Assembly: GCA_015680685.1 (NCBI GenBank)
Contig: MNCI01000268.1
Span: 28,424-92,423 of the forward strand
DNA from: Gnetum montanum
Lineage: Eukaryota > Plantae > Gnetophyta
Reading direction: 5' to 3'
DNA: 64,000 nucleotides
A program made the position numbers and the translations under genes. How positions within the stretch are numbered: the stretch's first letter is position 1; every line of letters begins with the position of its first letter. Below are positions 4,437 to 50,963 of the stretch, piece by piece. The notes under the pieces are model-generated. The model made no database searches and was not told the DNA's origin. It saw only the letters and a program-made list of their open reading frames with translations.

Positions 4437-4702
4437 ACCCACATACATACATGTTTGTGTGTCCATAAAAGTGACAGAATCCCATAAAGCCGTTACTGAA
4501 AACCCGCATACATACATGTTTGTGACAGAATCCTATAAAGCCGTTACTGAAAACCCGCATACATACATGTTTGTGTCACTTAACATGTCATAAAAGTGAC
4601 AGAATCCCATAAAGCCGTTACTAAAAATTCCCATCCTTCCACGTACATACACGTTTGTGTTCATAAAAGTGACAGAATCCCATAAAGCCGTTACTGAAAA
4701 CC
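4437..4702. repeat. Four imperfect tandem copies of a ~33-bp core upstream of the host gene
   Basis: The core GTGACAGAATCCCATAAAGCCGTTACTGAAAAC starts at 4471, 4522, 4596 and 4669. Each copy is preceded by a CATACATGTTTGTG-like linker of variable length. Confidence 0.9.
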
Positions 4703-5152
4703 TCATCCTCTACTCTCTTCTGACGTAACAATGCCGATCCAACTCCTTTTTTTTAATCTCTTTTCTCTCCGACTGCATGTTTCGTTGGTGTAGACCAAAT
4801 AATGTTTTTTTCTTTTTCCCGGGTCGAGTCTATTTATCGTGAGATTCGAGTCTTTGAAGTTTCTCACAGCATTTTGGTGCTTTCCTTGAGCACGTTCCAG
4901 CCGCAGAGCTAGATTAGCGGTTTTCTCAGTTGAGTCAAACCATACCATTAAAGCGATTTGATTTATGGCACGCCTAGACAGGAGTTCGCGCAAGCGCCAT
5001 TACTGCCAGAGGCACAGAGGGGTAATCACATCCATTCATTCATTTTTGCTTTTCTTGGTCGTTGCAAAAGAGTTTCAAGCACTGTAAAACAATCCCAATT
5101 TGTCCAGTAACACAGTGAAGAGCAATAAAGAATTGCACCCGAGAAGAGAAAG

Positions 5153-7042
5153 ATGTCTAATCAGCATTTGCGAACGCTTGCCAGAAAGCTGAATTTGGAG
5201 GAACCCCGCTATGAAACCACGCCTATAGCAAAAGTAGGATTCAAAGCTTGTGTTACTGTCAAAGGCAATTGCTACCGTAGTCATGAAATCTGCAGAAGAA
5301 AAAAATGGGCGGAAGCAGCTGCAGCAGAGATTGCACTTTGCCACCTCTCTGCGGTAGGTAGACCACCATGAATTTTGTTTGCAGAGGAAAAAAATGGATT
5401 ATTGATTGTTCCGATAGATAGATAAAGCAAATCATTTGTTCATTCCATAAAATCACATGACATGGGATTTTTTCGGTTGTTTTTACAGGACTTGGGAAGG
5501 ATTGCAAAAGATTTGGTTGAAAGTATCATGGCCAGGAGAAAGTTGGGAATGCCTAAATACGGTGTAAAGCAAGTTTCTTCTTCTTCTGGTATTGGAGGAT
5601 TTCAAGCATGGGTCCATGTTAGTGAATCTACTTATTCGGGCAGCATTGCCATTTCTGCAAACTTAGCAAAGACAAACGCTGCCATCAAAGCCTTCAATGC
5701 CCTCTGTGCAGAGTTTAACAGCGTTGGTAATATGCTTTTGTTTACTTCAATGCCCTCTGTGCAGAGCTTAACAGCGTTGGTAATATGCTTTTGTTTACTT
5801 CCTTTGTTTTAAAGAAATGAAGGGAAAAAATTGTTTAATTTTTCTTTGAAACTCTCTCTCACAAATTTTGTCGCTATTTGTTTCTGACGTGCCACCACTG
5901 TTATGAACTATGATTAATGTTTAGTTGAAAATGCTTTATAACTTGCTTGAAAAGAATTTTCATATGCTGATAGCAGTTGGGTTTTCCTTTTTTCTTGCTT
6001 TTCTTAACGTCTGATTTGTTAATTCATTCCTTCCTTCTCATACACAGTGGACAGCCCAACATAGCAAAATTTAGTGTTATATATGTAATCTGCTTTATGT
6101 TCGTTACCTGGAATTTTTATATATTTTCTTTCATTTTTGTTTTTCAAAACAGAAAGATCGCTTTTAAAATCGAAAAGAAGTATAGGGCCCTATTCCAGCA
6201 AGCATGATATATTGCTAGTTGGTGAAGGAGATTTTTCATTCTCTCTGTGTTTAGCCAGAGCCTTTGGCTCTGCACAGAGAATGGTTTGTACTTCACTGGA
6301 TAGTCGAGGTTTGAAGATTCTTTTTAAAAAGAAAATGCATCGTTATCGTATTTTTAATTTTCCAAGGCTTGTGCATCGTTATCGTATTTTTAATTTTCCA
6401 AGGCTTGTGCAATATGTGACTGATTATAATGGTACGCCATGACATTCAGAACAACTTCTGTGTAATTACTCCTCGTCGTGTGGGCAAATTTTATCGGCCT
6501 TGGAGGATTTGGGAGCTAAAATTTTGCATAATGTGGATGCCAAGAAGATGGAGGGTCATCCAGATTTGAAACAAATGAGATTCGATAGAATCGTTTGGAA
6601 TTTTCCGCATGCTGGATTTGGTCGAATCAGAGGCGAATGTAATCGCGACCAAATTAGGTAAGGCATATCAAATATTACTTAATTAATTTATATCCTAGAC
6701 TTGGCCCAACATCAAACATTCAAAGACATTCTCTCTGTGTTTTGTGTGCTGGAATTTTTCAGAAAACACAAGGAGCTTTTGGAAATGTTTTTGAGAAATG
6801 CAAAGACGTTAGTAAAGAAGCCTGTTGGTGAAATCCATATTACACATAAGACAGGGCAGCCATACGATCAATGGGAAATTACCAAACAAGCTGAAAAATG
6901 TGGCCTGCTCCTTAAAAATGCAGACCCTTTCTGCAGAGAAGATTACGAAGGATATATAAACAGGAAAAGCTACATGCCAAAGCCACGGAAAACCTTCAAG
7001 TGGCGCAGTAGCCAAACATTCAAGTTTACCACAACATGGTAA
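5153..7042 (+). CDS. Tandem dsRNA-binding-domain (DSRM x2) + BMT5/DUF2431-like SAM-dependent RNA methyltransferase fusion protein, ~360 aa; exons 5153-5353, 5489-5726, 6153-6308, 6450-6657, 6763-7042
   Basis: All four introns are GT-AG with matching phases (0,1,1,2). The joined length is 1083 nt with no internal stop. Exon 1 is a dsRBD (LARKLNLEEPRY..F..CVTVKG..Y.S..RRKKWAEAAAAEIAL) and exon 2 a second, degenerate dsRBD. Exons 3-5 carry DUF2431 motifs: ILLVGEGDFSFS, TSLDS, LGAKILHNVDA, FDRIVWNFPHAGF, GEIHITHKTGQPYDQW, YEGYINR. Confidence 0.85.
5692..5801 (+). repeat. 53-bp tandem duplication spanning the exon 2 splice donor
   Basis: CTTCAATGCCCTCTGTGCAGAG(T/C)TTAACAGCGTTGGTAATATGCTTTTGTTTA occurs at 5692 and 5745. 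Confidence 0.95.
6336..6411 (+). repeat. 36-bp tandem duplication in intron 3
   Basis: TGCATCGTTATCGTATTTTTAATTTTCCAAGGCTTG occurs at 6336 and 6372. Confidence 0.95.
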
Positions 7043-8444
7043 GTATAAATCATCCGTAATTGTTCTGATTTTGGAGAGCCAGAACTAGAATGTTATTTAA
7101 AACACTTTTATGATCTCTTTACATATCCTAAATCCATTTTTATTGGGCATTTGTTTGCCTTCTTTGACGTTTCTATTGAATTTTTTTAAAAAATTTATTT
7201 TGTTTAATTGTCCCCAGAGCAGAGTTAAAGGCCAGTCTGAAATTCAAGCATCAAGGTATTTTAATACGTACCTTCCTGAAGAACTATTTTTGATTTTAAG
7301 TGCTCAGAGAATTTGATGGACATAAATCTAGTCTCTTGGGTGGTATGTAAAACGGCTTTTAACTGCCCAAGAAGTATACATCAATGAGATGCTTCGTGAG
7401 AAGCTTACTCATGGCTTACATTTTACATGGCACGTGTTCAATCCATATATGGTACATGACATATGTAAAATTGCTCTCCATGTAGGTGATATTTTCTCAA
7501 TTTTTATTTTCATACTATTACTCTACCAACAACGTAGAAAAAAGAACGGTCTTTGCATTCTCTTCAAAAAATGTTCATTTTAATATCTATTACTCTTTGG
7601 TGTAAGTAATATTTTCTAGATTCTTAGAATAAAGCTAGATACACCTTAAGAATTATAGTCTAATTATAACTTTATAAGTAAGCATTGTCCACTAGACTTG
7701 AACCTTTGACTTAGAAATTTCAAATCAAGAGTCTTAGGCTAACACTTTAATGATAATAAAGCCTTATAAAATGATAAAACTAAAATATATTATGAATAAC
7801 AATCATATTATATTTCTATAATATTATAAAAATGGTATGAAAATATTTTTTAGGGGTGTTAGAATCTGAGAACATTGAAACATATGGGCACTCCAAAATT
7901 TATAGAAGTTTATAACTTTGTGTTACATAGTAGAATTGAACTTCTAATCTAGGGTTACTAGGCTAAGACTTGAACCACTAGGCTTAACACCTCATTGTTT
8001 GAAACTATTCTTTGAATAATTTATATTGGTTTGTAAAGGTAAATAAGATATAAATTCAAAATTACAAAAGAAAATCAGCAATATTAAAACCTCTTACATA
8101 TTTTGTAAGCATTTATTATTTGGTTAAGCTTAAAGAAGAAAGATAGTTATTAGAAACTATTTTTCAAAATGGTGTTGATGATGGCTTTTTTTAGTAGTCT
8201 TGTATTATTATTTCAATGGAACATTGATATTATAGGTTGATGAAATTATTTGTTCTTAATTTGGAGTATGTAACTATTTAGTAGTATTGGAAAGAATTAG
8301 GTCCTATTTTAAGGGATAGTGTCAATGATGGTCCTTGTTATAAAGGATAAGTCCATGTTTCGAGATTCATAATCTTTGATTATTATTATAAATAAACATA
8401 CATGTTAGAGCTTGAATGGTACTTTGATGAAATTGGTTTGTCAT

Positions 8445-9979
8445 TGTAACAATGGAAAATGTTGGTTGTTGGAAATATTGAATGGAGTTCCGTGTACACA
8501 GTTTCAACCTCAGATCCGTGCAAGGGCTGTGCTGGAGAAGACGAATCCGAGATGCCCTGAACGATCTTGTCGATCAAACAGGGATTTACTTAATCAGTAA
8601 AATTTTGTAATAACTAGATGGCAAAATGGCGATTTCAATAAGGAGATATAATATCGTTAATCTTGAAGGTAATTGAGAGCGATGTAAACGATTCAAAGCG
8701 ATTGCAAAATCTATATAGATAGGATGCAAGAAATCGGATTTAGAGAGTGTGCAATCCCAAGATTTGGGATTTAGTTTATAAACAAAATATGTTGGATACA
8801 ATGATTACAAGCGGACTTCGGTTCAGACGAAGCACGTGCCAACAACAGGAAAGTTATTTAAAGATAAAACAAGCAAAGGTCGATCTACCTTGTTCTAGCT
8901 AATTTGGGCGCAAGGGAGTCAGACCTGAAGCAGAATATTCGTTAACTGGTTGTTTCTGATCAAAGATTCTTGCCAATCACCTTCGATGTTCTTACGATCA
9001 TTGATCCTCTTTTGCTCTCTTGTCAATCTTTGCCAAAAGTTGTCAACAATTGCCAATGAAAGAAAATTGCTCACGGAGAAAATTTGCCAATCGAGAAAGA
9101 TTTTTGCCAACCCTTTGATCCTTGTCAATTGGAGTATTTATAATGTTAGGGTTAGGAGAAAAACGTAGTTTAGATGATGCATGTCCTGAACCTGCAAAAT
9201 GTCGTTGACTTGATGTGTTCGTGTTTGAAGCTTGCGGCGCTACGCTGCATTACACTCTGAAACGTAATGTGTCGTAATCTACTTTTACTGGAGCTTTAGC
9301 AACAAATTGTTCTGCGGTTACACTGTAATACGCTAGAGAGCGTATTGCGACGTATGAACTGCTGATGCCTGAATTGTATTATCTCTATTTTTGCTTGTAT
9401 TACGTTGCATCATGCTATATTACACTGCATAGAGTAATTCAGCGTAAGATAGCGAACCTGGAAAAATTTGAAGTGTTTTCGCCACGCTTCCCTTGTTTCT
9501 GTTCATTCTTTTTGGGGTTTATTACGCTATATTGCGTAATGTAGAATAATAGGCCCTTAACTGAAAAAAGGAAAACTTGCTGAGATGTGCAACTTGTTGC
9601 AGATCCTTGCTTGAGCCTTGAGGTTTTGCTGGACCATTGAGATCTCGAATTTTGCTATCTCCGTTGTTGCGACTAGATGGACTGTCTTCTGGCATTACGC
9701 TATGTTATGCTACATTACGCTGTGTTGCGTAACGTGGCGTAATATGCTAAAGGTTAAAAATTTCGAAACATAGTTAACTTGCAAAGTTGCAGACTTACCA
9801 TTGCACACCCCTTGTCTTTGTTTTGTCCTCTCGAGTCTATTACGCTGCGTTGCATAGTGTGGCGTAACAAATCCTTAGCCGAAAAGGGAACTTGCTGAGC
9901 TGCGACTTGTCATAAATCCTTGCCTGAGTCGCAAGATTTTGCTGAACCGTTGATGCCTCGAAATTTTTATGGTGTTTCA
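8445..9979 (-). repeat. Element A 3' LTR
   Basis: Direct repeat of 24790-26324. The minus strand begins TGAAACACC immediately after the PPT. Confidence 0.95.
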
Positions 9980-11561: not shown

Positions 11562-14500
11562 TTAGATGTGATACCGCTTCAGATACATGTGGTTCACTGG
11601 GTTTGGGTGTTCGTTGTCATTGATGTCTGCTAGCCTGAATGCTCCGTTGCCATATGCGTTGACAACCAGGAAAGGGCCTTCCCAACTTGTAGAGAATTTT
11701 CCCACTGGTTTATGGACGGCTTTGAGAACCAAGTCTCCTTTCTTAATCGGTCGCTGATGCAAGTTGTGATGATGTTTCTGTTTCTTCCTATCTTGATACC
11801 TTTCAATGGTATCAAGCGTCTGGATGCATTTCTCCTCTACTGAGTCTAAATCCACAATTTTGGACTCATTGTGTTGAGTCTTATTTATAACTGTGGAGAG
11901 GACCATCCGCAATGAAGGAATCTGCAGTTCCAGGGGCAACACTGCTTCAGATCCGTAGACTAGGTTGTAGGGTGTCCTATCGGTAACTGTTCTGCATGTC
12001 ATACGATAGGCCTATAGCACATAAAAGATTTTTTCATGCCATCGTTTTTTGTTGCTGTTGAACATCTTCTTTAGTAGATTGATAACCACCTTGTTTGTTG
12101 CTTCTGCTTAACCATTTGCTTACGGGTAATAAGGTGAGGAAAAAGATTGCTTGATACCAAGGTTATTGCAAAAAGATTTGGTTTTGATGCTACTAAATTG
12201 TGGTCCGTTGTCGGTCACAATAGTCATGGGAAGCCCAAACCTAGTTACTATATTTTCCAAGATAAAATGGCAAACCTGTTGAGATGTAATCTTTTGTAGG
12301 GGAATAGTCTTGACCCACTTCGTGAAATACTCGGTGGCAGTGATGATGAAGCTATGTCCTGCGGAAGACTTAGGCGTGATGGAACCTATGATGTCTAGTC
12401 CCCATCGTTGAAATGGCCAAGTGATCTGTGTAGTATGCAATTCAATTGGTGACACGTGTATTAGATTTGCATAACATTGACATGTGTCACATGTCTTAAC
12501 CTTGTTGAGGCAGTTTCGTTCCATGTACGACCAGTAATACCCTAAGCGTTTGATTTTAGCGGCCATGGCTCATGGGGCTATATGTCCCCCACATAGTCCT
12601 TTATGGACTTCGCTAACTATTCGTTGCGCTTGGTCATTATTAATGCAAGTTAGCAATACTCCATCAAAAGAGCGTCTACAGAGAGTACTGTCTCCAATGA
12701 TGACATATTGCCGGGCACGCTTTTGGATTGCATCTTTCTGTGTAGGTGTTAGCTCATGTGGTGGTTCGCTATGCAGAAGGTAGGCTTTAATGTTATCATA
12801 CCATTTTGGCATTCCACCTGTGCTTAGAGAAGAAATTTGCGCCGCTTGAATGATAGTCTTTGTACATTCCATCATTAAAGCGGGCCAAGTGGCAAATAAA
12901 TGTGGTGGCACATTTAAGGCCAGTGTGGCTAGTGCGTCAGCTACAGCGTTTTCATTATGTGGCACATGTTGGACATCAGTTGTCATGAATTGTTTTAGAA
13001 GATCTTTAGCCATATTGCAATAGGGCTGTAAATGTACAGCTTTACAGGCGTAGACCCCTATGATTTGATTAATGACAAGCATCGAATCACCTCGGATTAC
13101 CAGGTGTTGAACGTTGAGTTCCCTGGCTGTTAACAATCCTCTGAGGAGTCCCTCATACTCTGCCATATTATTCGTACAAGGAAATGCCAGGCAGTAAGCC
13201 AATGGATGAACATCCTCAGGGGAGAATGTAATGACAACGGCAGCATTGCCACCTCTGGTAGTTGAAGCTCCATCGAAGTATAACGTCGCTTCGAGGCTTA
13301 TCGATACAGGGCTTAAACTACGTATCTGTTCATCAGAAAACTTGGGCTATATCGCGGCTTGATTGTTAACCGTTGATGTTGCAAGCTGGTCGGCTATCGC
13401 TTAGCCTTTCGTGGAATATTGGCTAACGTAGTGCAAGTCAAATTCTACTATGATGGCTTTCCAGCGGGCTATCCTACTACTTTCGTATAAATTATTTATG
13501 ATAGCCCGCAGAATGTTATTTTTACAGATTATATTAACCTGGCTATGGAAAAGATAGTGCCTACATTTCTTGAGTGAAAATACCAATGCTAAACAGTTAC
13601 GCTCTACTTCATTGTACTATGTTTCGTACGCAAATAGAGCGTGACTTAGGTAGTAGATAGAAACTTCTAACCCGTCGTCCCTTCTTTGGCACAACAACGT
13701 AGCTATAGACACCTCTGAGCTTGCCAGGTATATGTAGAAAGGCTGATCCCTTTGTGGCGGGAAAACTGTTGGCAAATGTAACAACTCTTTCTTCAGATTG
13801 TCAAATGCACGTTGGTAGTTCTCGGTCCATTCGAAGTTAACGCCCTTCTTGAGAAAATGTTGCATAGGGCGTAACTTGTCTATTAATCTTGAGATGAACT
13901 GCTTGATAAATTGTAGCCTACCCTGCAGCCCACGTAGTTCTTTGAGGTTTGTAGGTGGTGCTAGATTACGATTGCTTTAACCTTGTCGGGGTCGACTCGG
14001 ATGCTAGTCTTTGATACCACAAACCCCAACATGCGCCTGGTTTTGACTCTGAATACGCACTTTCTTGGGTTGAGCCGTAGGTCGTGTCTGAGACATCGTT
14101 TAAGGATTAACTCTAGATCTCCTGAGTGATCTTTTGACTTTTTAGATTTGACAGGTATGTCATCTACGTAGTCGTTCAATCTCTCTAAGAGGTAATCGCT
14201 AAAGATGTATGTCATAGCGTGTTGATAAGTTGCTTCGGCGTTTTTTAACCCGAAAGGCATCATGGTGTAACAGAAAGTTCCCCAAAGGGTCATGAAAGTC
14301 GTAGTCAGTTGATGTTCTGGGTTGATACGAATTTAATTATAACCCAAAAACCCATCCATAAAGGATAGTAACGCGTGGCTAGTTGTTGTATCGATAAGTT
14401 GGTCGATACTTGGTAATGGGAAGTTGTCTTTAATCGTGGCCTTGTTCAGATTGCGGAAGTCTATATAGATGCGTATTACTCCCGTTTTCTTAGAGACAAC

Positions 14501-15048
14501 TACGATGTTCAACACCCAGTCCAAATAATCGACTGTGCAAATGAAACCAGCCTGATATAGCTTAGTGATTTTATCACGCACTGCTAGTGCGATTTCAGGC
14601 TTAATCTTCCATGCTTTCTGTTTAACCGCTTTGATATGCGGGTCTAAAATTATGTTGTGTTGTATTAGCCTTGGATCTAAACCCGACATATTTTCGTATG
14701 ACCATGCGAACACTATAATGTTATTTTGAAGTACTCAAGATATATTGCTTTGCATTTGTTGGTCAAGGAGAGAACTAACTTTCAAAGTTTTGCTTTCTCC
14801 TTTGTGTGTAACCACAGGGACATCAGTGAGGGAATCCTCGGTCACATCCCCAGCTTTTAAGTCTAGGGTTTGGGCCAAATGTTCTGGCTAGTCTAGGGAT
14901 ACTTCTGATGTTACTATGGTTGTATCACAAAGGGAAGCGTCAGTTCCTATCAGTGCATGATTGAGCTATCTAATAATTTCCCTGTATGGGCCTGTTAAGG
15001 CTAGGGGTGTGAGTAAAGTTGCGTCCATTTGCGAATTGACCTGCAAAA
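11562..15048 (-). pseudogene. pol: Element A pol (RT, RNase H, additional archaeal-type RNase H, integrase), interrupted by stops
   Basis: RT: LSFMDGFLGYN, MPFGLKNA, YVDD. aRH: YFDGAS, CTNNMAEYEGL, GDSMLVINQ, NAVADALA. Integrase: HKGLCGGH, WGLDIIG, TDNGPQF, SWEGPF. Confidence 0.93.
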
Positions 15049-15619: not shown

Positions 15620-18600
15620 ATGGCGCCGAAGATCAAAGGCAAACATGTCAAATTGGCGAAGATTGATGAAGTGTAGGAGAGTTTGCAGTGGGTTTCAAAG
15701 GCCAGGGTTGAAACGCGGGAGGCTAGTTCACTCGCTCGGTAAGTGGCTTTTTACCCTTCTAGATGATTATTATTTCCATTGTTATGGTATTGCAATTGTA
15801 CCTATTTCGAAGATGTGTATTATGGCGGGCGTTGATACTTGGTAACGCGGGCTAAGCTATCGTAGTTTGTGCTATTACCGCTATGGCTATTGTCGGAGAC
15901 AAACCTTGCGTAGTCGCAAGGGTTAGGGCGATCTTGGGCAATATTGTGCGAACAAAATGCATAACCGGAGAAGTCTAGGTACTATACCCTTATGTAGTAT
16001 GAATAGGATTCCTTCATCTCACCCATAAATATTGCATGTTACACTAGGGTAATACGTAGTATTACTTTTATCGTCGTTGTCAGGGACAGACTTTGTGCAA
16101 TCGTAAGGGTTTGGGTGATTTTCGTAATGCATTTCTAGCGTAACCTGTAATTTTCTGGGAGTCAAGGTAATGGAAACTCTAGTGCTGCGTAATGAAAATT
16201 TATTTTTTGTGTTGCTCTTACATCGTTAGTATGTCTATATTGATGTTTCTAATAGAAGTCTGTTTCATTGTAAAGGATTACGCTAAAGCCCATCCTGATC
16301 ATCTTGGACATTGTGGGCGTTCTGTGCTGTTTACATGTCCTCGTGGCCAATGTTCCTCCTTCTCATGCTCGTGTAAAGAAGGAGGTAGTTTGGTTTCGAA
16401 GAGGTGCATGAGAGTTTCTGCAGTTTTTGTTACATAATTATAGCGTAATTATTTGGTTGCATCTGTCGGCCGAGACAATCGCCGCCATTTTAGAGATGCT
16501 ACTGGTTGGATCGACACAGAGCATCTTGACGTTTCTGGTGGACGGCTCAATCGAAACCGTGCGGGTGCAAGACCGTGAACAGAGCACTAGGGGTTTGAGG
16601 CGTTTGTCCTGGATCTGGGATATGCCCAGGTTTAATTGTTATCATGCCTACAACACTTTGTTCGTAGCTCATCATCTTATGACCTACTTCCAGAATCCAC
16701 CTGGGATTGTGTATTATGCAGGCGGGTAAGTGTTTTCACGGTGTCATAATATGCTAACCATTTGTCTAAATTTGTGACCAGTGTAAACAATTGTCTACAT
16801 TCTGTGATGTAGGTTTTTCATTAATAAGGATGGTCTCTAGGGTGATACAGATACGTTGTCTATGGCCGAAATGGCCATACAGGAGTTCACCTCTATTGGC
16901 AAGGTACGTGTTGGTGTTATGGGACAAATAGAATTGGAAATCCCACATTACCCTAACTGCTATGTCGAATTTTTCACCAAGTGCAAAAGGCTTGGATGGC
17001 TGGATAAGGAGTGGACTTTGGATCGTCCTCTCACTGTCGCAGACGTGCAGGAGAAAATCCCACCATTTCCTTCACCTTTCAAACACGGTAAATTATGCTA
17101 CGGTGGTTCATTGTACAATCTTACGGGATGGAAACAATGTGAAAAATCATTTTATTTTACTATATTGTCTAAACCCTTGTTTTATGTTTACAGTTAAGGA
17201 ATCACGGGAGATCATGGTTATGGCTTCTGGGTGTGAAACAAGCAATCTTTTGTTTTGTTATGGCGACATAAAAGAAACACAGCATTGGCTCAACCATAGT
17301 GCGGCCCCAATTGTACTAACTAATAACCTCCGAGAAGCTGGACTAATGAAGCTATTTTTGCTTGTAACCCCCAACGTCACCGCAGGTGAAATGTTGATCC
17401 TAGTTAACTCTTTTAGCGAAGAAGTCGAGCATCTTTGCATACACATGCGTAACGTATGTGTAAGTTTTGATATTGACGCTCGACTGTTCGCTGACTTTTT
17501 TGGCATTCCCTCTGATGGCCTTCCGGTAAAAGAAAAGTCAAAAAGGAGTTCTAAGCACCAGAAGGAGATAGAGGAGTGGCTAGGGGTTAACAAGGAAGTG
17601 AAAGAAATCCCTGCTGATAAAATCAAGCTGGAGGTGGCTCATACCATTTATCCCCTCTTCCGAGCTTGCGCCTTCCCCAAGTTGCTCTCCCAGGGGAGAA
17701 TCCTTACCATAGAGTAGGCTCGGATCATGCTGGAGGTTAGGGAGGAGGGAACGTGGTATAATTGGGCTAGCTATTTCGTTGAAGGCCTGTAGGCTGAAAT
17801 GGTCAAGCTTCGCAAGAAGCTTGAGTCCCACTTCAACTTGGATTTCACCTTCTTTATAGCTTGCTTTTGACATTTTGCTGAATTCCTGGTGGTTTAGAGG
17901 GATGGAATCTGGGTGCAGCAGGATTGTAACCAGATTTCCAAACCTTGGATTTCTTAGGTTTTCAGCACTACCCGGTCGCAAGATCCCCCCGAAGGCATTG
18001 GGGATTCACTTTCACTTATGACTAAGAGATTGGTGATGCCTTGTACGCGGGGCCAAGACAGCGTGGGTGGAGCGCTCCCTTCTTACACCGGTAGTGTGTC
18101 GAGGGGGAAACTCCTTGCAGTAGGAATAGTGGATTCATCAATCTAACGGAAAAACCATCTTCCGGCCATGGAGTCCGCTGGTCCGACTGATGTAGAGAGA
18201 AAGAGGTTGCAAATTAAGTTTCACAGGAACGATCCCCCAACTAGTAAGTAAAGAGATGCGTAATTAGTTTATATATTTGTTACGTTGTGTATAGGCGTGG
18301 CGTCGCTTAGTGTTTGTAAGTGTCTCAATTAACTATTTTTTAGCAGACAAAGGGAAGAATGTAGAGGAGTTAACCCCCAAAATAGGGGTAATAGTTATAC
18401 GACGTGAAGGAGGGGCCCCAATTTTGGAAAAGGAGGCCCTTGTTAGTAATGCAAGTGGCACACAGGTTCCTATGCACGAAGAAGAGATGAAGGTAAGGGA
18501 CGTCGAAGTCCTTTCGAATGAGGTGGAAAAAGGGAAGCAGTTTGTCGTTGGTGAGTTTGACTTTTTCTTAGAGGGCAGCCTCATGTTACTACCATTCAGG

Positions 18601-26963: not shown

Positions 26964-29900
26964 ATACCATCCCTTGCTTGGATCTGACATTGGCAAGAGT
27001 TGGTATAGCAATGTGATATCTTTTTACCATCTATGTATTTAGTACTGAAATCAAAATTTTCTAGAAAAAGTGCTCATCTAATGAGCCTAGTACAGGAAAC
27101 TTTATTAAGAGCTCTAGAACATAGGTATTTATCAAAGTGTTTGAGATCAATTTTGATAATAAAATGAACATTTTGTAAAAATAATCTAAATTTCTCAATA
27201 CCCTTAACAATAGCTAGTAATTCTCTATGGGTACTGTGATAATTTCGTTGTGCAGCAGAAAATTTACCTGAAGCATACCTGCAAATTCTGATTACATTAT
27301 TCTTTTGTTCTTTCAAGGCAGCACCCTAGAATTCTGATGAAGTGTCTATTTCTAGAATTAATGCGCCATTTGTAGGTAGCTGTAATCTTGGGAGGTTTTT
27401 GCATTGATGCTTAGTTTGAACTCTGGTTTCTATATGTTATTTTATCCGAGGAGGATTCTGACTAAGTTGTTCATTTAGTAGTTTTCTATCCTTGGCAAGG
27501 TTTTTGTAAAACCTTGATACATAACTTATGCATCCTAAAAATTATTGTAATTGGGTTTTATCCTTTATTTCATCAGGAAATTTTCTTAAGGATTCAAGGA
27601 TGTTGTCTTGCAATGTTATAGTCCCTTGGGTAATCTGTAAGTCTAAGAATTCTATTGAGTTTTTTGCAAGTTGCATCTTTGTGGGAGAAAGTACTAGTCC
27701 ATTTTCATCTACTATTTTTCTGAATATTTCTAAATGTTCTAGCTATTGCTTTGGATTTTTACTCATAACTAACATATCATCAATGTAAATCATAATAAAG
27801 GAAAATCTAGTAAAGACTTGATCCATATAGTTTTGAAAGATAAAAGGTGCAGTTTTTATGTTGAAAGGTAAGATTGTTCATTCATATAGTTCTTCGGATA
27901 TGGTGAAGGTAGTTTTCTAATGATCTTGAGGTTCTACTTGTATCTACCAGAAACCAAATTTTAAATCAAATTTGAATAAATATTTGTATGGAGGAATCTT
28001 TGGAACAAATCATCTTTATTGCGTATAGGATGCTGGACAGGTTTTACAAGGTCATTTAAGGGTTTATAATTGACCACTAATCTTTTTTTTTTACCTTAGA
28101 CCTGTTCTAATCTCTTATTAACATAAAAGGTTACATAAGCAAACATGCTGGTACTTGATTGTATTAGCTTTTTATCTAAGAGAGTCTCAATCTCTTCATC
28201 ACATTCTTTCTTTAAGCTTGGTGGCATGCATATATGGTGAGCTTTTGCTTTTATCTTAATGTTGTCTTTGAACTCAATTCTACACTAGTGTCCCTTTTTA
28301 TGCCTAAAAGCAGTGGGATCATCATTGGCTAATTTTAAGAGATCTTCCTATATTTTGGTAAACTTATTTTCTATTTTCTTAATGTTATTCACTATCCATG
28401 GGGTTTTAATGGGTTTCCTTTGTTCTCATGCTTGGAACCTACTTTTGTAGAGGTTTTTCCTAGAGAATCTTTCTCTTGATAGTAATAAGTAAGATCTCCC
28501 TATCGTATATAGTTCTAGGCCTTGGAGATTATTAGTTCCTATGAAAAGATCATAAGATCTTATCTCATAGTGACAAACCTTTAATTGTAAGGTTTTACCT
28601 TGGGATGTTCTAACAGGGATTATGAATTTATATTTCAAGGCTACCTTTTAGGTATTGAGCATTACATATGTTTTTTCTTTTTTCTTCCAAAAGTAAAAAG
28701 GTATTATATTCCGTTGAGCAAGTGAAACTTCAGCATTGCTATCTATAAGGGCATCTATGGGGTATGGCTTATAACCTTCAAATTTCATAAAGAATGTGCA
28801 AATAGGAAGATTAATTATTCTATTGTTATTATTTACTATATTAATAGGCATAGCCTGTGTCTCTTCTTGATAGTATTTTCTCTGGTAGCTTTCTTCTATT
28901 TTCTAAAGCTCGTAGAGTTCTTGAGAAGTTTGTTGTATGTATTTCTTTAATTGTGTTATCTGTTGGGTTCACATAAGAGACTCATCTAATGAAGGTATTC
29001 TTTGGGTCTATTTCTCACTTTCAGATGATTCTTCTATATTATGTTCTAAGGTTGTTTCTGATTCTTTCTGCATCTCAAGATACTTGAACCAACTTTCTTC
29101 TATCAAGAATTGATGTTCTTCTAGTTCCTGCTTCTTTTTAGTTATTTTACGCTTTAAAGACATTATTTTAGAGACTTGATCTTATTGTTTTTATAATCTT
29201 ACTACTTCTTGTTTTATTATTTTGTAGGTTAGGTCTCTTTTTATAGGATCTACATCAATTGTATCTAGAGGTCTCTTAGATAGATCTGGTTTCTCTTCTC
29301 TACTATATCTAGACGAAGTTTTGCATGTCTAGATCTAGGGGTTTCTAGGTGTCTTAAAGGTTGATGTATGTTCATGTTGTAGTACAAGACATTATCATCA
29401 AAATCATCAAAATTTCCTACATCTTCCCCCATTTTCAAAAGAGGTAGCCATTGGATTAGAGTCACTGACATAATAATTTGAATATTCATTGGATTCAATG
29501 TAAATGTCACCAAGAGAAAAAGGTGTAGAGGGATCAAGAGTAAAATCATAGTATTACTCAAAAAGATTATAATGTTCTATGAAATTCACTTACCTAGAAT
29601 GCTTGTCTTTATGTGGACATTCATGTGCAAAGTGATTTCCTTTACAAACAAAACATTTAACATCTTTCTTTGGGAGTTTATGTTATCAACATTTAAACAT
29701 TCCTCAAAAGATTTAGTTGGAGAGGACTTTTGTTGCCATCATTTCTTTGAATAATTACTACATTTATGCTTGTGAGAATAACACTAAGATTTTGATGTGT
29801 TTTCAAATTGATTTTTAGGACATATGTCATTCCAGAAAGACTTTCCAAGTTTATGACCTATTCGTTTCATGAGAGATTGAGCTCTCATATCATGACATAG

Positions 29901-30751
29901 ATCTCTATTTATGTATATTATTAATTTTCTAATTGCACTAAAACTCATATAATCTATACCTCTATCTAGCATTTTTATTTCTGCTTGATACATCTCACAG
30001 AAAGGTTGTGGCATCGATCTTGAAAGATGTTCTTTAGCAGATTGATCATGAGTTAATTTACCACAATAATACCATTCTTCCATCGTATCTAAATATGTAG
30101 AGACATTTTGTATTTTATGTAATCGAGCTTTAAAGAACATATCTCTATATGGATCAATATGTTCATTTTTACTACCTATAAATTCTTTAGTTATTGCATT
30201 TATAAATAAAATTGTAGGGCTAGTTAGCAACTTCTTTTTGATGTATGGATCAATATAGTTCCACCATCTTTTCAAATTGCTAACAAAATTGAATACACAA
30301 TTTTGGATAGCATGCTTAGAAATTTTTTTGTCAAGAATAACTTGACAGTCAATGAAACCATTTATCCAATCTAAGACAACTTGTCATTATGGTATAGATA
30401 ATTTATCCATACTAAATTTACAATCTTTTTCACTAATCATTCTAGAAGAGACTTGTGGATATACCTCAGGTGCTTGGGTGTATAGTTAAGGATTTCTTAG
30501 AAGTTCTTCCTCATTTGAATCAAGCTTGGTTTTCTGGTCATCAAAATTTATAGCCATTGCTTGAGAAGATCCTTCATTAGCATTGATTTTGGATTTTCCT
30601 TTATCCCTTATTGTGGATTTGTTTCTACATTTTGGTAAAGGAGAATCAACATTTGTGCCATATTTAGGAATTCTTGGATCAAGGAGTTGTACTGTTGTTT
30701 TAGGGACCCATTGTTTTTAGAGATTTTTAACTCATTCTTTAGTTTTTAGAG
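26964..30751 (-). mobile_element. Endogenous caulimovirid (pararetrovirus), 3' part: capsid, aspartic protease, RT, RNase H; degenerate
   Basis: CP-like 29784-30275 with zinc knuckle KCFVCKGNHFAHECP (~29614-29658). Protease ALIDSNAEVSL (28648-28851) and YDLFIGTNNL. RT IYIDDML (~27770-27790). RNase H ICRYASGKFSAAQRNYHSTHRELLAIVKGIEKF (27074-27316). No integrase. Confidence 0.9.
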
Positions 30752-37789: not shown

Positions 37790-40700
37790 TTAAACATCAG
37801 GGGCAAGAGGATTGTCCCCTTTAGACCCGCTAGCACCATGAGCCCCCACTGCACTAGGGCTAGCTTCCTGAACATCATCGTCGTCTTGATCCTATAAAAT
37901 GCAAAAGAAACAATCAACATAAGGATAAAAGAGAAAACCTTCAAACATTATTCAGCGAACGAATTTCATGATAACAAAACGCTTACTGTAGGGGATCCCC
38001 CTAAACCAAATTCCAGTCGACGGAGGATTTCCTCTTCTGAGACGCTCGCCCAATCGGTGTCATCAAGGCCTAGGTCGAAATCTGCCAAGGCCTTCCCCTT
38101 GTCAACCACCGACCATGTAGGATGCTTTAAAGGGAATTCACCCACAAACACCTCCCTAGAAGCTGTCGTAATTACCCTTATAGGCGATTCCATCTCAAAA
38201 GTTGTGTTCTGAGAAAAGGTATCAAACGCAGAGCGTAGACCTAGACCCTCCACAAACATCTCAAGCTGACGCTTTTCAATGGATACTTCCTTCAACGATT
38301 TCTTATAATGATGTTTGTGGTTCTTTTCATCCTGACCCCATTTGTGTACCTTAGAAGCGAAAGCTTTCCAATCCTGGCACTTGAGGTTTAGTAGATCTAC
38401 TTGGGCCTTACACTCTGCTAGTTTCCGGGTCAGTGATGCGTGGCGATTGAGTAGGTTCCAGTATCTAGTATATGTGACCTTGAAAGTTCGCCAAGAACGA
38501 TCACCACTTAGTTTAGCAAAGGCGAACTCATACCGAGCCTTCACATCATCACGCTCAACTGACAACTCGAAAACTTCTTTCTCGTTTGCTTGAACTTGCA
38601 ACCACAACTGTTCGATGGAACACCTACAAGTCCAAAGCGATTTGGCGTTGTGTACAAGACCCTCCGCCACCTCGTCATAAACTGGCCTTAGTATTTGCTC
38701 GACTTCTGGGGGTAGTGTGGGCAAACTCTCGATGCTAACAGTCTCAGAAGGATCCCACCTCAGTTTGGCACCTATGCACATGAAAAGAACAAACGCTAAA
38801 ATGACAAAACCGGGTGTAAAACTATAAAGCTGTAAAAAAACTCGAAACATCTGTACCTATCTCAGGGTGGGCTTCCTGAATACATTCAACAACCTCCTCA
38901 GCAATACCAGCCACAAAATCCATCTTACTTGGCATTTCAGTCCAAGTAAATGGTCCACGAGTACGAGACAGACTAACCTCCACGGTCCTTTTAGGGGGAG
39001 CCGTTTTCATATGCACGTCCAGTCGCATCGTTCTGGTTTCACTACCTTCGTCTGGGAGGGATGAAAACACAAAAGTCAAAAACCATGGAAACAATGACTC
39101 ACAAGGAAACACAATAAAGAGAAATATACCATGTTATCAGTCCCCTTCTGGGTTTGGAGGTTCGCCTAAGTCCAGTCTCCCCTTAAGGAAGCTGCTAAAC
39201 ATTTCATCGACACCACTTTGGTCATCCACTAGTTTAGTCTCTGTGGTGTCTTCCCGTAGCTCCTCCGTCTCTCCTGCCTGATCCTTGCTGATCCCTTCCT
39301 CCTCAGTCATTAACTCTGTCGTAGCTTCCTCCTCTTCAATGATAGTCTCTAATTCCTGCCTCCTCACTTCTCGAGTTAAGTTTGAAGGCATCAGTGGGAT
39401 GTGAGTGGTCAAAATAAAAATTATGAATAAGACGAAAAGGACAATGCAATAAGTGCGCTAAGTTTACTTACCTCAGACAGGCATCTTGAACCGTATGCGC
39501 TTCACCTGTGGCTCGTCCACATTTGAGGCCTCCTCGATTGAACGTTCACACTTCGTCAACTTTGACTTGGCCTTACCGATGGTCTCTTTGATGACCAATT
39601 CTGCTCTCTTTGCAGTGTAGGGCACATCATCTGGTTCCAACCCTACATTGTCACGTGTATGGATGGAGGTACCAGATGACCCCCTTGTCATGATGGATAC
39701 GGATTCATCAATCCCCTCAGGCGCGTCTTGGGACTCAGCTGTTTCAAACAAATGGTTGATCCACGGGCGAGATAATAGACCACGATCCAGTAAAACATAC
39801 TTATTGTCTGCACGAACCACTAGAAACTCGGCCAAACGGCGAAGATAGCCGGCAAAGAATGCAAATGTAAAGTGGGACTATGCCTCTACATTTGAGCGCA
39901 ATCGCACTATCTCCTTATGAAGGCCCAACAACAAAAATTGGGCCCAGTTATAACGCATTCTGGTTTCTAAGACGGTTTGCATAATATGCACAGCTTCAAC
40001 ACCAAGGCTCCGCACCTAGGAAAGGGATTTAGGGAATACCCGTGCCCTAAACAGGGGATATAGTTCATTAACTTCCTCAACCTTTGACTTCCCCTGCATA
40101 GGGAATCCCTTAGCACCCTTGGTAACGCCCAACTAGTCCTCTAGCTCACGTATCATATGAAGCTCTTTCTGAGCCCTATCCAAAACTACATCTACGCCAT
40201 CCGCCGGTACACCAAACAGGTTCGAAAATAATTCGGCCGACAGATGGAAGACTATTTTAACACCCTTAATCCGGGTGCTGTAGTAAGAGACGGATTTGTC
40301 GAATGAATCAACAATTTCTGTCATTTCGGCTATCGACACATTAGGGCTCGGGGTTGTAAAGAGCTCCATAAGGTTGGCATCATCTAAACAACAAACAATG
40401 GACGGTGGGGCATGGGTGCCCAACCATTTCTATGCCTTACCAATCTCCTCGAACTTCATCGAGAGGGTACTCTCAGTTCGTCCTGTTGCAACAGGGTCTC
40501 CGCCAGGAGGGACATCAACTGCAGATACAATTTGAAACCATCACATCAGTATAACCCCCAGCAGTCAAATAAACAAACTAAGGTATGTAGAAAATGTTGT
40601 CACTTACCTTCAATAGTGGACTTAGAGGTGCTACCCAAGTCAGAGTCATGAGGAAAAATTGATCCCTTATGCGACCAATCTCCATGCAACCACCCACGAG

Positions 40701-42871: not shown

Positions 42872-43030
42872 AGCATGGCCTTAAACTACCATGGCGGCCT
42901 GGTAAGGCATTAAAATGCCACATACAAACCCCCTTCGGCCCGGTAAGGCCTTAAACTGCCACCTGCAGATCACATTCAACCTGGTATGGCCTTAAACTAC
43001 CATGGCGGCCCGGTAAGGCCTTAAACTGCC
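42872..43030 (+). repeat. Hairpin-AAACT motif array upstream of element B pol
   Basis: GGCC-CGGTAA-GGCC-TT-AAACT occurs twice, plus three variants. Confidence 0.8.
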
Positions 43031-43141
43031 ATGCGTCCCAGTGTGACGATAAACCACCATCATACATGTACACACGATTTAAGTTGCCAGAGAACATCGA
43101 ACAATACCTATTAGCTCATTCTGCTCTTTGTTTATTGGCAG

Positions 43142-46100
43142 GAGCAAGCTCGATGGATTGTCAGCGTTTATCTGCACCGTTAATCATCGATGGACCATAT
43201 GGAAAAATCATAAGAGAAATCGACATAAACTCCATCAGCTTAGATACATCAACAGAAAACACACTCATAGCCTCGATGCAACAAATGCTAGATAATTACA
43301 AAGGTATGACAAAACCCCTTGACATAGAAGCTGAAAACATCACTGAAGACCCGTTGACTGAAACCCCCATCGTTATGCCTGATGGTGAAACCAAAATATT
43401 AAAATTAAGTACACTATTGTAGCCTCCATTGGCCAAATACATAGAAGGTGTGCTTCAAAACAACATGAATGCATTCGCTTGGTCTTACATCGACATGCTC
43501 GGGCTAGATCCTCGAATCATCCAGCACAACATTATCCTCGATCCAAAATTGAGACCAGTAAAAAAAAAGGCACGAAAGGTTAAACCTGAGGTAGCATTTG
43601 CAGTTCGCAATGAAATCACCAAACTTTATCAGGCTGTTGATTACGCCAATTGGGTTTCCAACATGGTAATTGTCCCGAAAAAGAATGAAAGTATTCGCTT
43701 ATGCATTGACTTCCGGGATCTCAACGTTGCGACCATAAAAGATGATTTTTCCCTACCCAGCATCGATCAACTTGTTGACTCAACTACTGGGCACGCCTTG
43801 TTATCTTTTATGGATGGCTTCTCAGGATACAACCAGATACGCATTAACCCAGAGCATTAGCTTCGGACTACCTTTATGAGACCATGGGGAACCTTTTGTT
43901 ACACAATGATGCCCTTCGGTCTCAAGAACGTTGTGGCCACATATCAAAGGGCCATGACATTCATTTTTAACGATTACATGCTGCACTCACTCAATGACTA
44001 TGTCGATGATATCATGGTTAAATCGAAGACATCACAACAACACGTACAAGACCTTGACTTAGTGCTAAAACGTTGTTTAAAATATGAGTTGAGACTTAAC
44101 CCAAAGAAATGTGTCTTCGGAGTCAAAACAGGAAAAATTCTTGGATTCATAGCCTCAGAAGCAGGGATACGAGTAGACCCCGATAAAGTTAAGGCCATAA
44201 CAAACTTAAAACCACCTAGCAACCTTACTGAACTCTGAGGTCTACAAAGTAGATTACAGTTTATCAGACGTTTCATAGAGAAACTAACAGACAAATTAAA
44301 ACCTATGAACCACTTGCTACGCAAAAACGTCCATTTTGAATGGACTCCACAGTGCCAAGAAGCATTTGACAATATTAAAGCAGCACTCGTCCAACTACCC
44401 ACGGTTTATCCACCTCAAAATGATAAGCCATTTTGCATCTACCTTGCCACTTCGGACTCGTCAATCACGTCTATGCTTTGCTAGAAACAAGATGATGGGA
44501 TCGAAGTCCCTGTATATTACTTAAGCCATGCATTAATAGCCCATGAGAAGAAGTATAACGAGGTGGAGAGGTCATGTATAGCTCTTACCTTTTCTTTGAA
44601 AAAATGGCGACATTACCTCTTCCATAACCAAGTTAACATAATCTGCAAGGATAATGTGCTCAAAGCCATCACGGGAAACATTTATGAGACAAGTCAAATA
44701 GCCCATTGGAAAGCCATGATAGCTGAGTTTGACTTATACTACATAGCACAATCATTAGTTAAGGGTCAAGCCATAGCAAATCAAATGACCGCGTCACCAA
44801 CACACGATCAAGCAATGATAGAGCTAGAATTCAGCAACGAAAATGTAAGTGCAATAGCCATAGTGCCCGATGACTACGAAGCCATTTTGAACTTTGATGG
44901 TGCATCCACCTCTCGAGGGGGAAGTGCTGCCATTGTCATCACCTATCCCTCCGAGGAGATCTGACCCTTTTCTTATCGTTTCAACTTTCACTGTACCAAC
45001 AATATAGCAGAGTACGAAGGTCTCCTTAGAGGTCTTACGGCAGCACTAGCTTTAGACATCACATGACTTGTGGTCAGGGGAGACTCACAACTAGTTTTAA
45101 ACCAAGTCACAGACATTTATGCATGCAAAGCGCCACATTTACAACCATACTATGACTTAGCCAAACATCTAATGAAACGATTCGAAAACATGGATGTGCA
45201 ACATGTCTCTAGAAATGATAATACCATCGCAGATGCACTAGCCACTCTAGTGTTAAAAATATCGCCTAACATGTTCCATACATTGCCAAGCTCTATAATC
45301 AGTTGTGCCAAACCAATAATCGATACTTTTGATACATTGCCAATTGCGTTCGTTAGTACAACACATGCGATAGAATGGTATGACGACATAAAAGAGTACC
45401 TTCTACGTGGTGAAACACCGCAACACTTAATGAATGCACAAAAGGACGCGGTACGAAAGCGTTCTAAGAAATACGCACTGGTAGGGGACACCTTGTGTCA
45501 TCGATCCTACGAAGGCATATTGCTAACATGCGTTAGTAGCGTTGATGCCCAAACCATTGTTAAGCAAGTACATGACGGACTATGCGGAGGACACATAACA
45601 CCTAAGGCAATGGCCACAAAGATAAGATGCTTAGGCTATTATTGGCCACACATGGAGTATGATTATCTTTCCAAGGCTAAAACATGCAATACCTATCAAA
45701 GACATAGTAATCTAATCCATGTCCCACCAAATGAGTTGCATACAGCGCAAATCACATGGTCCTTTCAAAAGTGGGGGTTGGACCTTATCGGACCAATAAT
45801 ACCCTCATCTTCTGCAGGGCATAGTTTCATCATAACCGCGACAAAGTATTTCACGAAGTGGGTAGAAGCTGTTCCCCTTCGAAAAACCACATCTAAACAC
45901 ATATTTAACTTCATCCTTGAAAACATCATGACCCGTTTTGGCATCCCCATGACCATCGTCAATGACAACGGGCCACAACTCAGCAGTGCCGAAACCAAAA
46001 CCTTTTGTGAAAGTCTGGGGATCAAAAACTCATTTTCATCCCCTTACTACCCTCAGAGCAATGGGCAAGTAGAGGCCACAAAAAAAACCATCATTACAAT

Positions 46101-46614
46101 ACTTAAAAGGATGCTTACCCAAAGCAAGAAAAAATGGCATGAGCAGTTGGTATACGCACTGTGGGCATATCGCACGACATGTTGGACTTCAACAGGTAAA
46201 ATGTCATATAGTCTTGTTTATGGTTCAGAAGCTGTTTTACCCTTGGAATTACAGGCACCATCTTTAAGGATCACACTCTCTGGACTCCTCGACGAAGGGC
46301 AAAACAATGACCTGCGCATCATTGACCTGGACTTGGTAAAGAAGGAATGCATGCGTGCACTCGATCAGATTGAATGGTACCAAAAGCGACAACGACAACG
46401 CCATCGGCACGACATTCATAAGCGTCCCATCAAGGAAGGCGACCTTGTACTTAAGGTCGTTCAGGAACACCCAGACAAATTCTCAGCCAATTGGGAAGGG
46501 CCCTACCTGGTCACCAAAGCATACGACAACGAAGCATTCAAGTTAGCTGATATGGAAGGGTGTGAGCTTACAAATCCTACCAATCACTTGTTCTTGAAAC
46601 CGTTCCATATTTGA
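43142..46614 (+). pseudogene. pol: Element B pol (RT, RNase H, additional archaeal-type RNase H, integrase), few stops
   Basis: RT: LSFMDGFSGYNQI, MPFGLKN, YVDD. aRH: LNFDGAS, CTNNIAEYEGL, VRGDSQLV, NTIADALA. Integrase: HDGLCGGH, WGLDLIGP, DNGPQL, YYPQSNGQVE, NWEGPY. Confidence 0.95.
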
Positions 46615-49443: not shown

Positions 49444-50963
49444 TATCTTGATAAGTCCTATAATTTTGACCTATCATTATACCTATTTGCTTATTTGTCT
49501 AGTTTTGCATTTTTATAGTATTCATAGGTGGATCTATAGTTAACTTCTAAAATAACTGGTGAACTATTTCTCTTTATGGTCAAGGTATCTCAACACTATT
49601 GACTTTAGCATGATCTAAATCTATTTGAGTGTTCATGCTAATTTTCAATAATGCATCACATTTTGCACAATGATATTAATGATTGTATTTCACTGTAGAA
49701 GGATGTGGGCATGCTATTGTAATTTTAGGCTGAGTTCCTATCCTTGAGTTTGAGTTGGAGTCTAATTTTAAAACTATATGTTTTTCTTTTGGATCTATTT
49801 GCTCTTGGTTTAGCTTCTTAAATTGTTTTGTTTTAGAAGATGATCCAAGTATTCTGCTAATGTCCATGGTGATTTCTAAATCTTTGAAGAATCTTTTTAT
49901 TGTTGATTCTAGGTCTTTTTCTTCAAAAGTTATTTTGGACTAAGATTTAGAGATCTAGAAAGATCTCTTGGTTGGTAATAGGTTAGCAAGATTTTTAACA
50001 AGAGGTAGGATCCTATTATGGCTAGTTTTGCCTTCTTCTAATAAATAGAAAGGGTCTTGTTCTAAAAACTTTGGGGTTTTCAGATAGACTTTGTAATACT
50101 TTTTTCCAAGATTGGATTTACACCTTTTTAGGAGAACATGATCATAGAATTCATCTATTGTATCATCTAATTAAGAATATAGTGTATGGATTGGTAGAAC
50201 TTTGGTATTAATCATAGATCCATATTCTATGTTCATTGTTCCGAGTGAAACAAACTGGTCACCAAAAAGCAAGAACATTTTTATGCTAACACTTTAAAAT
50301 AATTTAAAAACTAATCTAGTACATATTGTTGCATACACGCTACCTTGCTTCATATCTAATGGAATATAAGTAATAATCATTAAACTATAAAACAAATTTC
50401 TATCTCTTAGGGAAAGAGTAAAGTTGGGAAGGGTTATGACTAAGGCATCAAATTCAAGATGTCCTTTTGCTTGGGTGATGATAGCATCTTTGAATTTCTT
50501 AAATCTTAGATCTACCAAGGCGATCTTGTAAGGATTCTTGAGCCTATAGTTAAAGTGTGGATGGATATGTACATCTAGTTCAACAATATGAATATAATTA
50601 TACCCATCAGCGATCCATTTCCTAACTTCCCTCATAGAAAAAAGAGAGAGAGCTATCAATCATAGTTCTGAGCCACTAATCTCTAATTTGCATTTAGAAA
50701 AATACATTAAAGAGATTGTTTTTAATGAAGTTAGCTTACGCATCAGATATATCTCACGTTGTCAAGGTATTAGAGGTAATTTTAAACATGAAAAAGTACT
50801 ACAAAATTTAGATAAATGATGTGTAAAAGAGATAGAAGAACTTGGAAGAGGTCTGTGATCATGTGCCATTTTTGTTGCTTTGCTAAAATGATATACCGCA
50901 ACTAATTATGCAACTTACTCTCGCCTATTCGTCAACCTTCATTGTGCACCGTACGTTCTTCTG
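49444..50963 (-). mobile_element. Endogenous caulimovirid, 5' part: 30K movement protein and following linker
   Basis: ORF 50294-50659(-) reads GYNYIHIVELDVHI...IALVDLRF..FKDAII...PNFTLSLRD, the 30K MP core with the D motif. Candidate ATG at 50869. It joins 26964-30751 once element B and one TSD copy are removed. Confidence 0.88.

Follow-up and report, generated by a model that had tools for sequence, protein, structure and literature searches.

Gene structure

The window, the 64-kb stretch of DNA analysed here, encodes on its forward strand a five-exon gene (5153-7042) that joins a domain for binding double-stranded RNA (dsRBD), and a likely second one, to a BMT5-like (DUF2431) methyltransferase domain (Table 1). 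A test of splice-site combinations yielded an open frame of 360 aa without an internal stop. Eight of 384 combinations were open and carried three test motifs, and the chosen model is the one with the best-looking sites. The start codon at 5153 has an in-frame stop upstream at 5126, and the stretch 5019-5152 is free of ATG. Introns 1 to 4 contain two, nine, one and two in-frame stops, respectively, so splicing is required for the gene's protein. The lengths of these introns (135, 426, 141 and 105 nt) are all multiples of three, which places the five exons in one genomic frame; the chance of this is about 1 in 81.

Thirteen runs were considered, six of which contain part of the window, and four (X1, X2, X4 and X10) were aligned at 85% likeness. 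These four carry four organism codes, come from four studies and may not be from the window's species. X1, X2 and X4 are contig sets presumed to be RNA; X10 is on record as oligo-dT RNA, about 26% of which was read.

Table 1. Features of the dsRBD-BMT5 gene, with supporting evidence
Feature	Positions	Strand	Evidence and remarks
5' UTR, at least from 5019	5019..5152	+	X1 contig 1 begins at 5019 and continues into exon 1; stretch free of ATG
Exon 1, aa 1-67, dsRBD1	5153..5353	+	Pfam dsrm, 24.5 bits
Intron 1, 135 nt, phase 0, GT-AG	5354..5488	+	Joint in one contig each of X1, X2 and X4 and in one X10 read
Exon 2, aa 68-146, likely degenerate dsRBD2	5489..5726	+	Pfam dsrm below cut-off, low-confidence model, paralogue changes
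Intron 2 (fusion junction), 426 nt, phase 1, GT-AG	5727..6152	+	Seen in contigs of X1 and X2, with in-frame joints of paralogues
Exon 3, aa 147-198, short linker and BMT5-like start, GEGDFSFS	6153..6308	+	Pfam E 6.5e-9
Intron 3, 141 nt, family-shared position	6309..6449	+	Each of the four runs has net-141-nt joints; among those listed, none is at the exact window sites
Exon 4, aa 199-267, BMT5-like core, FDRIVWNFPH	6450..6657	+	Pfam E 1.4e-14
Intron 4, 105 nt, GT-AG, family-shared position	6658..6762	+	Joint in X1 (short side 208 letters), in X4 and in a single X10 read
Exon 5, aa 268-359/360, BMT5-like remainder, remodelled loop aa 329-350	6763..7042	+	Pfam E 2.6e-15; unspliced stop TAA at 7040-7042
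Probable fifth intron, donor GTAAGT at 7039, acceptor predicted from the sequence alone	7039..7217	+	X1 contig 6; depth zero at 7078-7150
53-nt tandem duplication spanning the donor of exon 2	5692..5801	+	Creates an identical donor at 5780, whose use would stop the frame at aa 169

The last exon probably ends at 7038 and a fifth intron is likely, since X1 contig 6 matches 6952-7038 without difference and then departs at the GTAAGT donor, continuing for 320 letters off the window. There are 47 candidate acceptors up to position 9000, two of which (7217, the best-looking one, and 7307) have a pyrimidine-rich tract; both would make the split codon TGA and give a protein of 359 aa. The C-terminus may extend beyond aa 359, and several gymnosperm-group relatives have long C-terminal tails. 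The five-exon, stop-free GT-AG model of the preliminary description is thus borne out, except that it missed the probable fifth intron at 7039.

Near-perfect tandem duplications of 2.1 copies occur at 4471-4575, 5692-5801 and 6336-6411 (units of 51, 53 and 36 nt; 98-100% match). They lie only around the dsRBD-BMT5 gene; of the 41 tandem rows in the window, the remaining 38 have matches of 92% or below. The 36-nt duplication sits inside intron 3. These duplications may be recent events or assembly artefacts. Among the joints listed for the four runs, none starts from the second donor at 5780.

Transcripts and paralogues

Read and contig depth falls on the exons, and in all four runs it is zero in bins wholly within introns 2-4. 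The GT-AG joint 5726/6153, which links the dsRBD exons to the methyltransferase exons, is present in one 635-nt X1 contig (71 letters on the short side) and one 629-nt X2 contig (51 letters). Both contigs begin in the 5' UTR, cover exons 1 and 2 and continue past the fusion joint. Commoner copies, most of which are 85-95% alike, splice exon 2's end onto exon 3, with letters of their own in between, at 5723-6174 (X1, X2, X4 and 11 X10 reads), 5726-6165 (X1, X4 and one X10 read) and 5726-6174 (14 X10 reads). Each of these paralogous joints removes a net 423 nt and so preserves the reading frame, as do all nine listed joint types tested. The fused family has at least three junction types.

The contigs nearest to the window differ from it. 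X1 contig 1 differs at 14 letters in about 334, with a further 36 gap letters in exon 2. The exact junction 5726/6153 has no X10 reads and no X4 contigs, and none of the 24 pieces listed out of 129 spans the whole coding region. X1 contigs that are 99-100% alike in exons 4-5 are spliced. Since the closest contigs differ from the window, expression is established for close copies of the locus. Contigs resembling the window have a depth of 3-9 versus 40-145 for other paralogues, although the depth of contigs reflects expression poorly. One X1 contig carries a different sequence upstream of 6174, at the methyltransferase exon, and some copies may therefore be unfused or differently headed. The 64-kb window contains no second copy of the gene.

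In-frame fusion joints in the transcripts of all four runs indicate an expressed multi-copy family and not a chance pair of neighbours. We conclude that the gene belongs, in intact form, to a small plant gene family that is expressed and has one dsRBD exon and one likely dsRBD exon spliced in frame to a BMT5-like domain. The spliced joints rule out two separate neighbouring genes and corroborate the earlier proposal that both halves share one transcript. The preliminary description overlooked that the gene is one of several paralogues. It had also raised the prospect of an unexpressed locus; close copies are expressed, a result that bears on close copies alone.

The predicted RNA-binding half

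Exon 1 matches the Pfam dsrm model at 24.5 bits (cut-off 23, E 4e-5), and its best PDB matches are Arabidopsis-type DRB4, DRB3 and DRB2 (E 0.001-0.009). Exon 2 scores 14.9 bits, below the cut-off, with an E of 0.041 over 24,736 families and a match spanning model positions 2-66 of 66. It has two Pfam matches in all, both to dsRBD-type models. Exon 2 has no significant PDB match and no NCBIfam match, and it does not align with exon 1. Single-sequence structure models are of low confidence for both exons (pLDDT 57 for exon 2, predicted as helix, two strands, helix, where a dsRBD has the order alpha-beta-beta-beta-alpha; pLDDT 44 for exon 1). With the exon 2 model, Foldseek returned no match at E 0.001, and the best hit in VIA was a designed protein (Z 6.1, rmsd 3.3, 69 aligned), with no dsRBD among the 50 rows listed. 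The ESM Atlas has no entry for exon 2 or for the protein P0151, and a word-based search found no longer protein containing exon 2 among 92 candidates, which is weak evidence. Exon 2 is likely a second, degenerate dsRBD, since it has a strong Pfam E for a single named family, the right length and the right place, and an AK pair at the start of the last predicted helix. The tandem DRB-like dsRBDs described earlier hence stand for exon 1, whereas exon 2 matches weakly.

The canonical RNA contacts of a dsRBD are a helix-1 glutamate, a GPxH loop and a KKxAK motif, according to the available part of PMC11309768. In dsRBD1 the lysine pair of helix 2 is retained (KKWAE, aa 50-54), and the helix-1 glutamate and the GPxH loop are missing. 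The dsRBD2 of the window copy keeps the helix-1 glutamate, lacks GPxH and reads ANLAK at the KKxAK position. It is without both lysines and without three residues that are present in the closest X1 and X2 contigs. In abundant paralogues, A124E and N125K place E and K at the first two KKxAK positions. The canonical set is complete in neither domain, and RNA binding may therefore be weak.

The tandem N-terminal dsRBDs resemble those of the plant DRB proteins (DRB2/3/5, DRB4 and HYL1), which form these groups in the part of PMC7994812 available to us. The likeness of exon 1 is weak (E 0.001 at best), and exon 1 differs from these proteins in the absence of GPxH. DRB proteins are not known to carry a methyltransferase.

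The dsRBDs could serve mainly as protein-contact modules that recruit the methyltransferase to a Dicer-like or DRB complex, a use to which some DRB domains are put. The dsRBDs of HYL1 and HEN1 mediate protein contacts, according to the accessible text of PMC4357707. The partial loss of canonical RNA-contact motifs in both domains would fit this, as would the DRB4, DRB3 and DRB2 matches of exon 1. We nevertheless consider it rather unlikely, since dsRBD1 is basic and keeps its lysine pair and paralogues have a lysine at dsRBD2 position 125.

The methyltransferase half

Exons 3, 4 and 5 match Pfam BMT5-like (PF10354/DUF2431) at 36.7, 55.2 and 57.5 bits (cut-off 24.7) and tile model positions 1-34, 38-92 and 101-167 of 168. 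The GEGDFSFS SAM-binding motif and the FDRIVWNFPH motif are both present, in agreement with the earlier reading of an intact domain, and the model is tiled nearly whole. Among columns at least 85% conserved in 129 relatives, 57 of 60 are kept, and in a smaller set of 76 relatives 43 of 44 are kept. At 70%-conserved columns the gene departs in 11 of 86, which is within the range of the family (median 8, quartiles 6-12). The dsRBD1, dsRBD2 and BMT5-like parts are all basic (pI about 9.5).

The C-terminal loop (aa 329-350) deviates from the family consensus YPGYxNKRGxG, with six of 11 conserved columns changed. Six of the 11 departures cluster in this loop (p 3e-4, for a region picked after seeing the data), and a departure as large occurs in three of 124 relatives. 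The only relatives with an equal loop departure are the Cuscuta proteins P0001, P0002 and P0166, which have up to seven tandem BMT5-like domains. At the 85% likeness limit, paralogue depth falls at the remodelled loop. In class I methyltransferases, the loop before the last strand often helps choose the substrate. We found no solved structure of the BMT5-like family. The remodelling could equally mean a loss of activity.

If the methyltransferase domain were inactive, the protein could act as an RNA-binding cofactor of DRB type whose SAM-binding fold is a relic. Such a reading would draw on the remodelled loop and the drop in paralogue depth there, but the SAM motif and NFPH remain, as do 57 of 60 near-invariant residues, and it appears very improbable.

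Domain architecture and related systems

The dsRBD-DUF2431 architecture was not found in the related proteins examined. A HMMER search with exon 5 (1.84 billion representatives, E 0.001) gave 600 matches, and dsrm is absent from the 150 examined. Likewise, PF00035 is absent from the precomputed domains of the 120 examined among 853 matches to exon 3. The dsRBD half compared with 277 relatives gave nothing under E 0.3. For a Taxus homologue in the ESM Atlas, 30 of 30 clusters carry PF10354 alone, and a word-based search found no longer protein containing exon 5 among seven candidates, which is weak evidence. A metagenome scan with exon 2 returned a single locus (L001, 1-4025), rejected as a chance match on a bacterial contig of 71% GC with integrase-like frames. 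The fused gene has no close relative in the searched libraries (best identity 56%), an absence that holds for the sampled lineages and not for all plants. The mostly non-subscription literature, covered by titles and the starts of abstracts, yielded no description of a dsRBD-DUF2431 fusion, and the mostly non-subscription literature yielded no characterised plant BMT5-like member. The earlier statement that no such fusion is known thus agrees with the 150 of 600 and 120 of 853 relatives examined. We conclude that the gene is a spliced, multi-copy domain fusion not found in the sequences or literature checked, and a variant within a known enzyme family.

The closest known proteins are plant BMT5-like/DUF2431 proteins (At4g26485-like, some named HIPP41-like), which share the catalytic domain, its motifs and two intron positions. 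Identity is highest (56% over 203 columns) with proteins that fall together with sequences of Ginkgo, Cryptomeria and Taxus. The window gene differs from the plant relatives examined in its dsRBDs, which they lack (the median N-terminal extension is 13 aa in 101 full single-domain members), and in the loop at aa 329-350. Other additions among BMT5-like relatives are domain repeats, coiled-coil-like tails and one HMA fusion (P0099). Another RNA-binding addition occurs in animal FDXACB1, in which a DUF2431 domain is fused to an anticodon-binding domain. That protein differs from the window gene in its partner domain and in domain order.

Yeast Bmt5 belongs to the same Pfam family of Rossmann-type SAM enzymes, a likeness by family and published description and not by alignment. 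It makes m3U2634 in helix 81 of 25S rRNA and requires the glycine of its SAM motif, as reported in the available text of PMC3950682. No dsRBD is described there, and the matching rRNA site is not listed for tobacco in the tables available.

The preliminary description had proposed convergence on the layout of HEN1. This stands insofar as two N-terminal dsRBDs precede a SAM-dependent RNA methyltransferase in HEN1; the likeness is confined to this order of parts. According to the accessible part of PMC4357707, HEN1 has five domains, including a La-motif and an FKBP-like domain, has long dsRBD inserts and 2'-O-methylates small-RNA ends. No exon of the window gene has a HEN1-type Pfam match. A HEN1 homologue is ruled out, as two dsRBD-sized exons and PF10354 take up the whole 360 aa.

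As an analogy, human Dus2 is closer to the window gene than HEN1, being an RNA-modifying enzyme with a lineage-added dsRBD. Its plant and fungal orthologues lack a dsRBD, and the animal form acquired one, which serves as its chief module for binding tRNA, as stated in the part of PMC6451096 available. It differs in that it is a flavin reductase with one C-terminal dsRBD and a tRNA substrate, and the likeness to exon 1 is weak (E 0.27-0.37).

Selection, origin and genomic surroundings

Differences from the paralogues fall mainly at third codon positions (25 of 40, p 1.5e-4); of 36 changed codons, 20 are synonymous, set against 22% synonymous sites. The 40 differences are a chosen subset, the best supported of 209 and mostly common to abundant paralogues. 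The listed coding insertions and deletions sum to whole codons. These codon-position counts, which are not a dN/dS estimate, give a rough sign of purifying selection on the family.

A tree of 40 of 130 rows places the domain outside a flowering-plant clade (99/96), a fern clade (98/95) and a gymnosperm-containing clade (95/86). Support for its place beside the flowering plants is weak (93/76), and the tree is one of genes only. The terminal branch is long (0.79 versus a median of 0.37). A first FastTree had set the domain beside long-branch rows, one of them fungal, with a support of 0.35; four rows were removed and the tree was rebuilt.

Fragments of the plant family break at introns 3 and 4: 19 of 30 C-truncated ones stop at intron 3, and 47 of 83 N-truncated ones start at intron 4. 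We thus infer that the catalytic half is a DNA-level copy. The retained family introns rule out a retrocopy. The simplest origin would be exon joining at the phase-1 intron 2, by which DRB-like exons would have been joined at the DNA level to a copy of an intron-bearing At4g26485/BMT5-like gene. The gene is not a transposon protein, as it has no transposon-type Pfam match.

As described earlier, the intact gene lies amid decayed transposable elements, and the remaining window contains Ty3/Gypsy-type remnants and a caulimovirid-like fragment. Decayed Ty3/Gypsy-type frames for reverse transcriptase, RNase H and integrase lie in opposite orientations at 11562-14734 (-) and 42955-46614 (+). Within the retroelement regions, frames of 261 and 296 aa at 16932-17717 (+) and 37966-38856 (-) have no Pfam match; they may be extra ORFs of Tat/Ogre-type elements. 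A fragment at 50294-50659 (-) resembles a caulimovirid movement protein (Pfam MP, E 2.8e-12) and is likely an endogenous pararetrovirus remnant. A 199-aa open frame at 29784-30383 (-) has no Pfam match and, by eye, is perhaps another pararetrovirus or retroelement remnant.

The family could be functional while the window copy is a weak or decaying paralogue. Its location among decayed retroelements points this way, together with the low depth of contigs resembling the window (a poor measure of expression), the missing lysines and three residues of dsRBD2, and the second donor at 5780 with its stop. However, the frame, splice sites and core residues are intact, contigs 99-100% alike in exons 4-5 are spliced in X1, and the differences from paralogues are mostly synonymous. 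We therefore regard decay of this copy as quite unlikely.

Predicted function

On balance, and judging from the domain content, we lean towards a SAM-dependent enzyme that is docked by its dsRBDs on structured RNA and methylates an unpaired base beside a helix. The dsRBDs, chiefly the first, would grip an A-form helix without reading its sequence. The catalytic domain would then methylate a nearby unpaired or flipped base, most likely at uridine N3 as in yeast Bmt5. Uridine N3 lies in the Watson-Crick face, which is used for base pairing. A duplex-paired uridine would thus be a poor substrate, and an unpaired one by a helix is more plausible. The target base would sit in a nearby loop, bulge or overhang. 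The best precedent for such docking by an added dsRBD is human Dus2. The remodelled C-terminal loop may mark a substrate unlike that of unfused family members. Candidate RNA classes are rRNA, tRNA or snRNA, hairpin or small-RNA precursors, and viral or transposon RNA.

The role of the yeast enzyme is not simply transferable to plants. A term search of the available tobacco tables turned up a single m3U, 25S 2956, which matches human m3U4500 and has no yeast counterpart (PMC10281867), and the animal m3U of the PTC is made by SPOUT1, according to the accessible text of PMC11641110. In the available main text of tomato and wheat ribosome papers, m3U gave no term match. The protein might be a housekeeping rRNA methyltransferase like yeast Bmt5, with the dsRBDs as an added grip on pre-rRNA. 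Its full PF10354 match and conserved core are consistent with such a role, and m3U is reported in plant 25S rRNA in the part of PMC12150641 available. However, the tobacco and animal assignments speak against it, and several paralogues, a long branch and a changed loop fit it poorly; the likelihood of a housekeeping role seems small.

A silencing or antiviral role, as the preliminary description suggested, is possible but unlikely, the DRB likeness being the feature that points to it. It would mean that, independently of HEN1, a vascular-plant lineage has a second dsRBD-guided RNA methylation, which arose when DRB-derived exons were joined to a BMT5-like enzyme and the fusion multiplied. The base mark, for instance m3U, would be placed on RNA of viruses or transposons, on hairpins or on small-RNA precursors in silencing or defence.

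In plants, BMT5-like genes occur widely and often in multiple copies, and the available data for the tobacco ribosome list no m3U at the site that the yeast enzyme targets. For the enzyme docked on structured RNA that we favour, the natural dsRBD fusion points to a structured-RNA substrate and offers a small enzyme with a deletable targeting arm. If the target is something other than rRNA, the modification would constitute a new RNA mark in plants, and the dsRBD-plus-methyltransferase design would have arisen independently. Should the silencing or defence role hold true, it would give a first handle on what plant BMT5-like enzymes modify.
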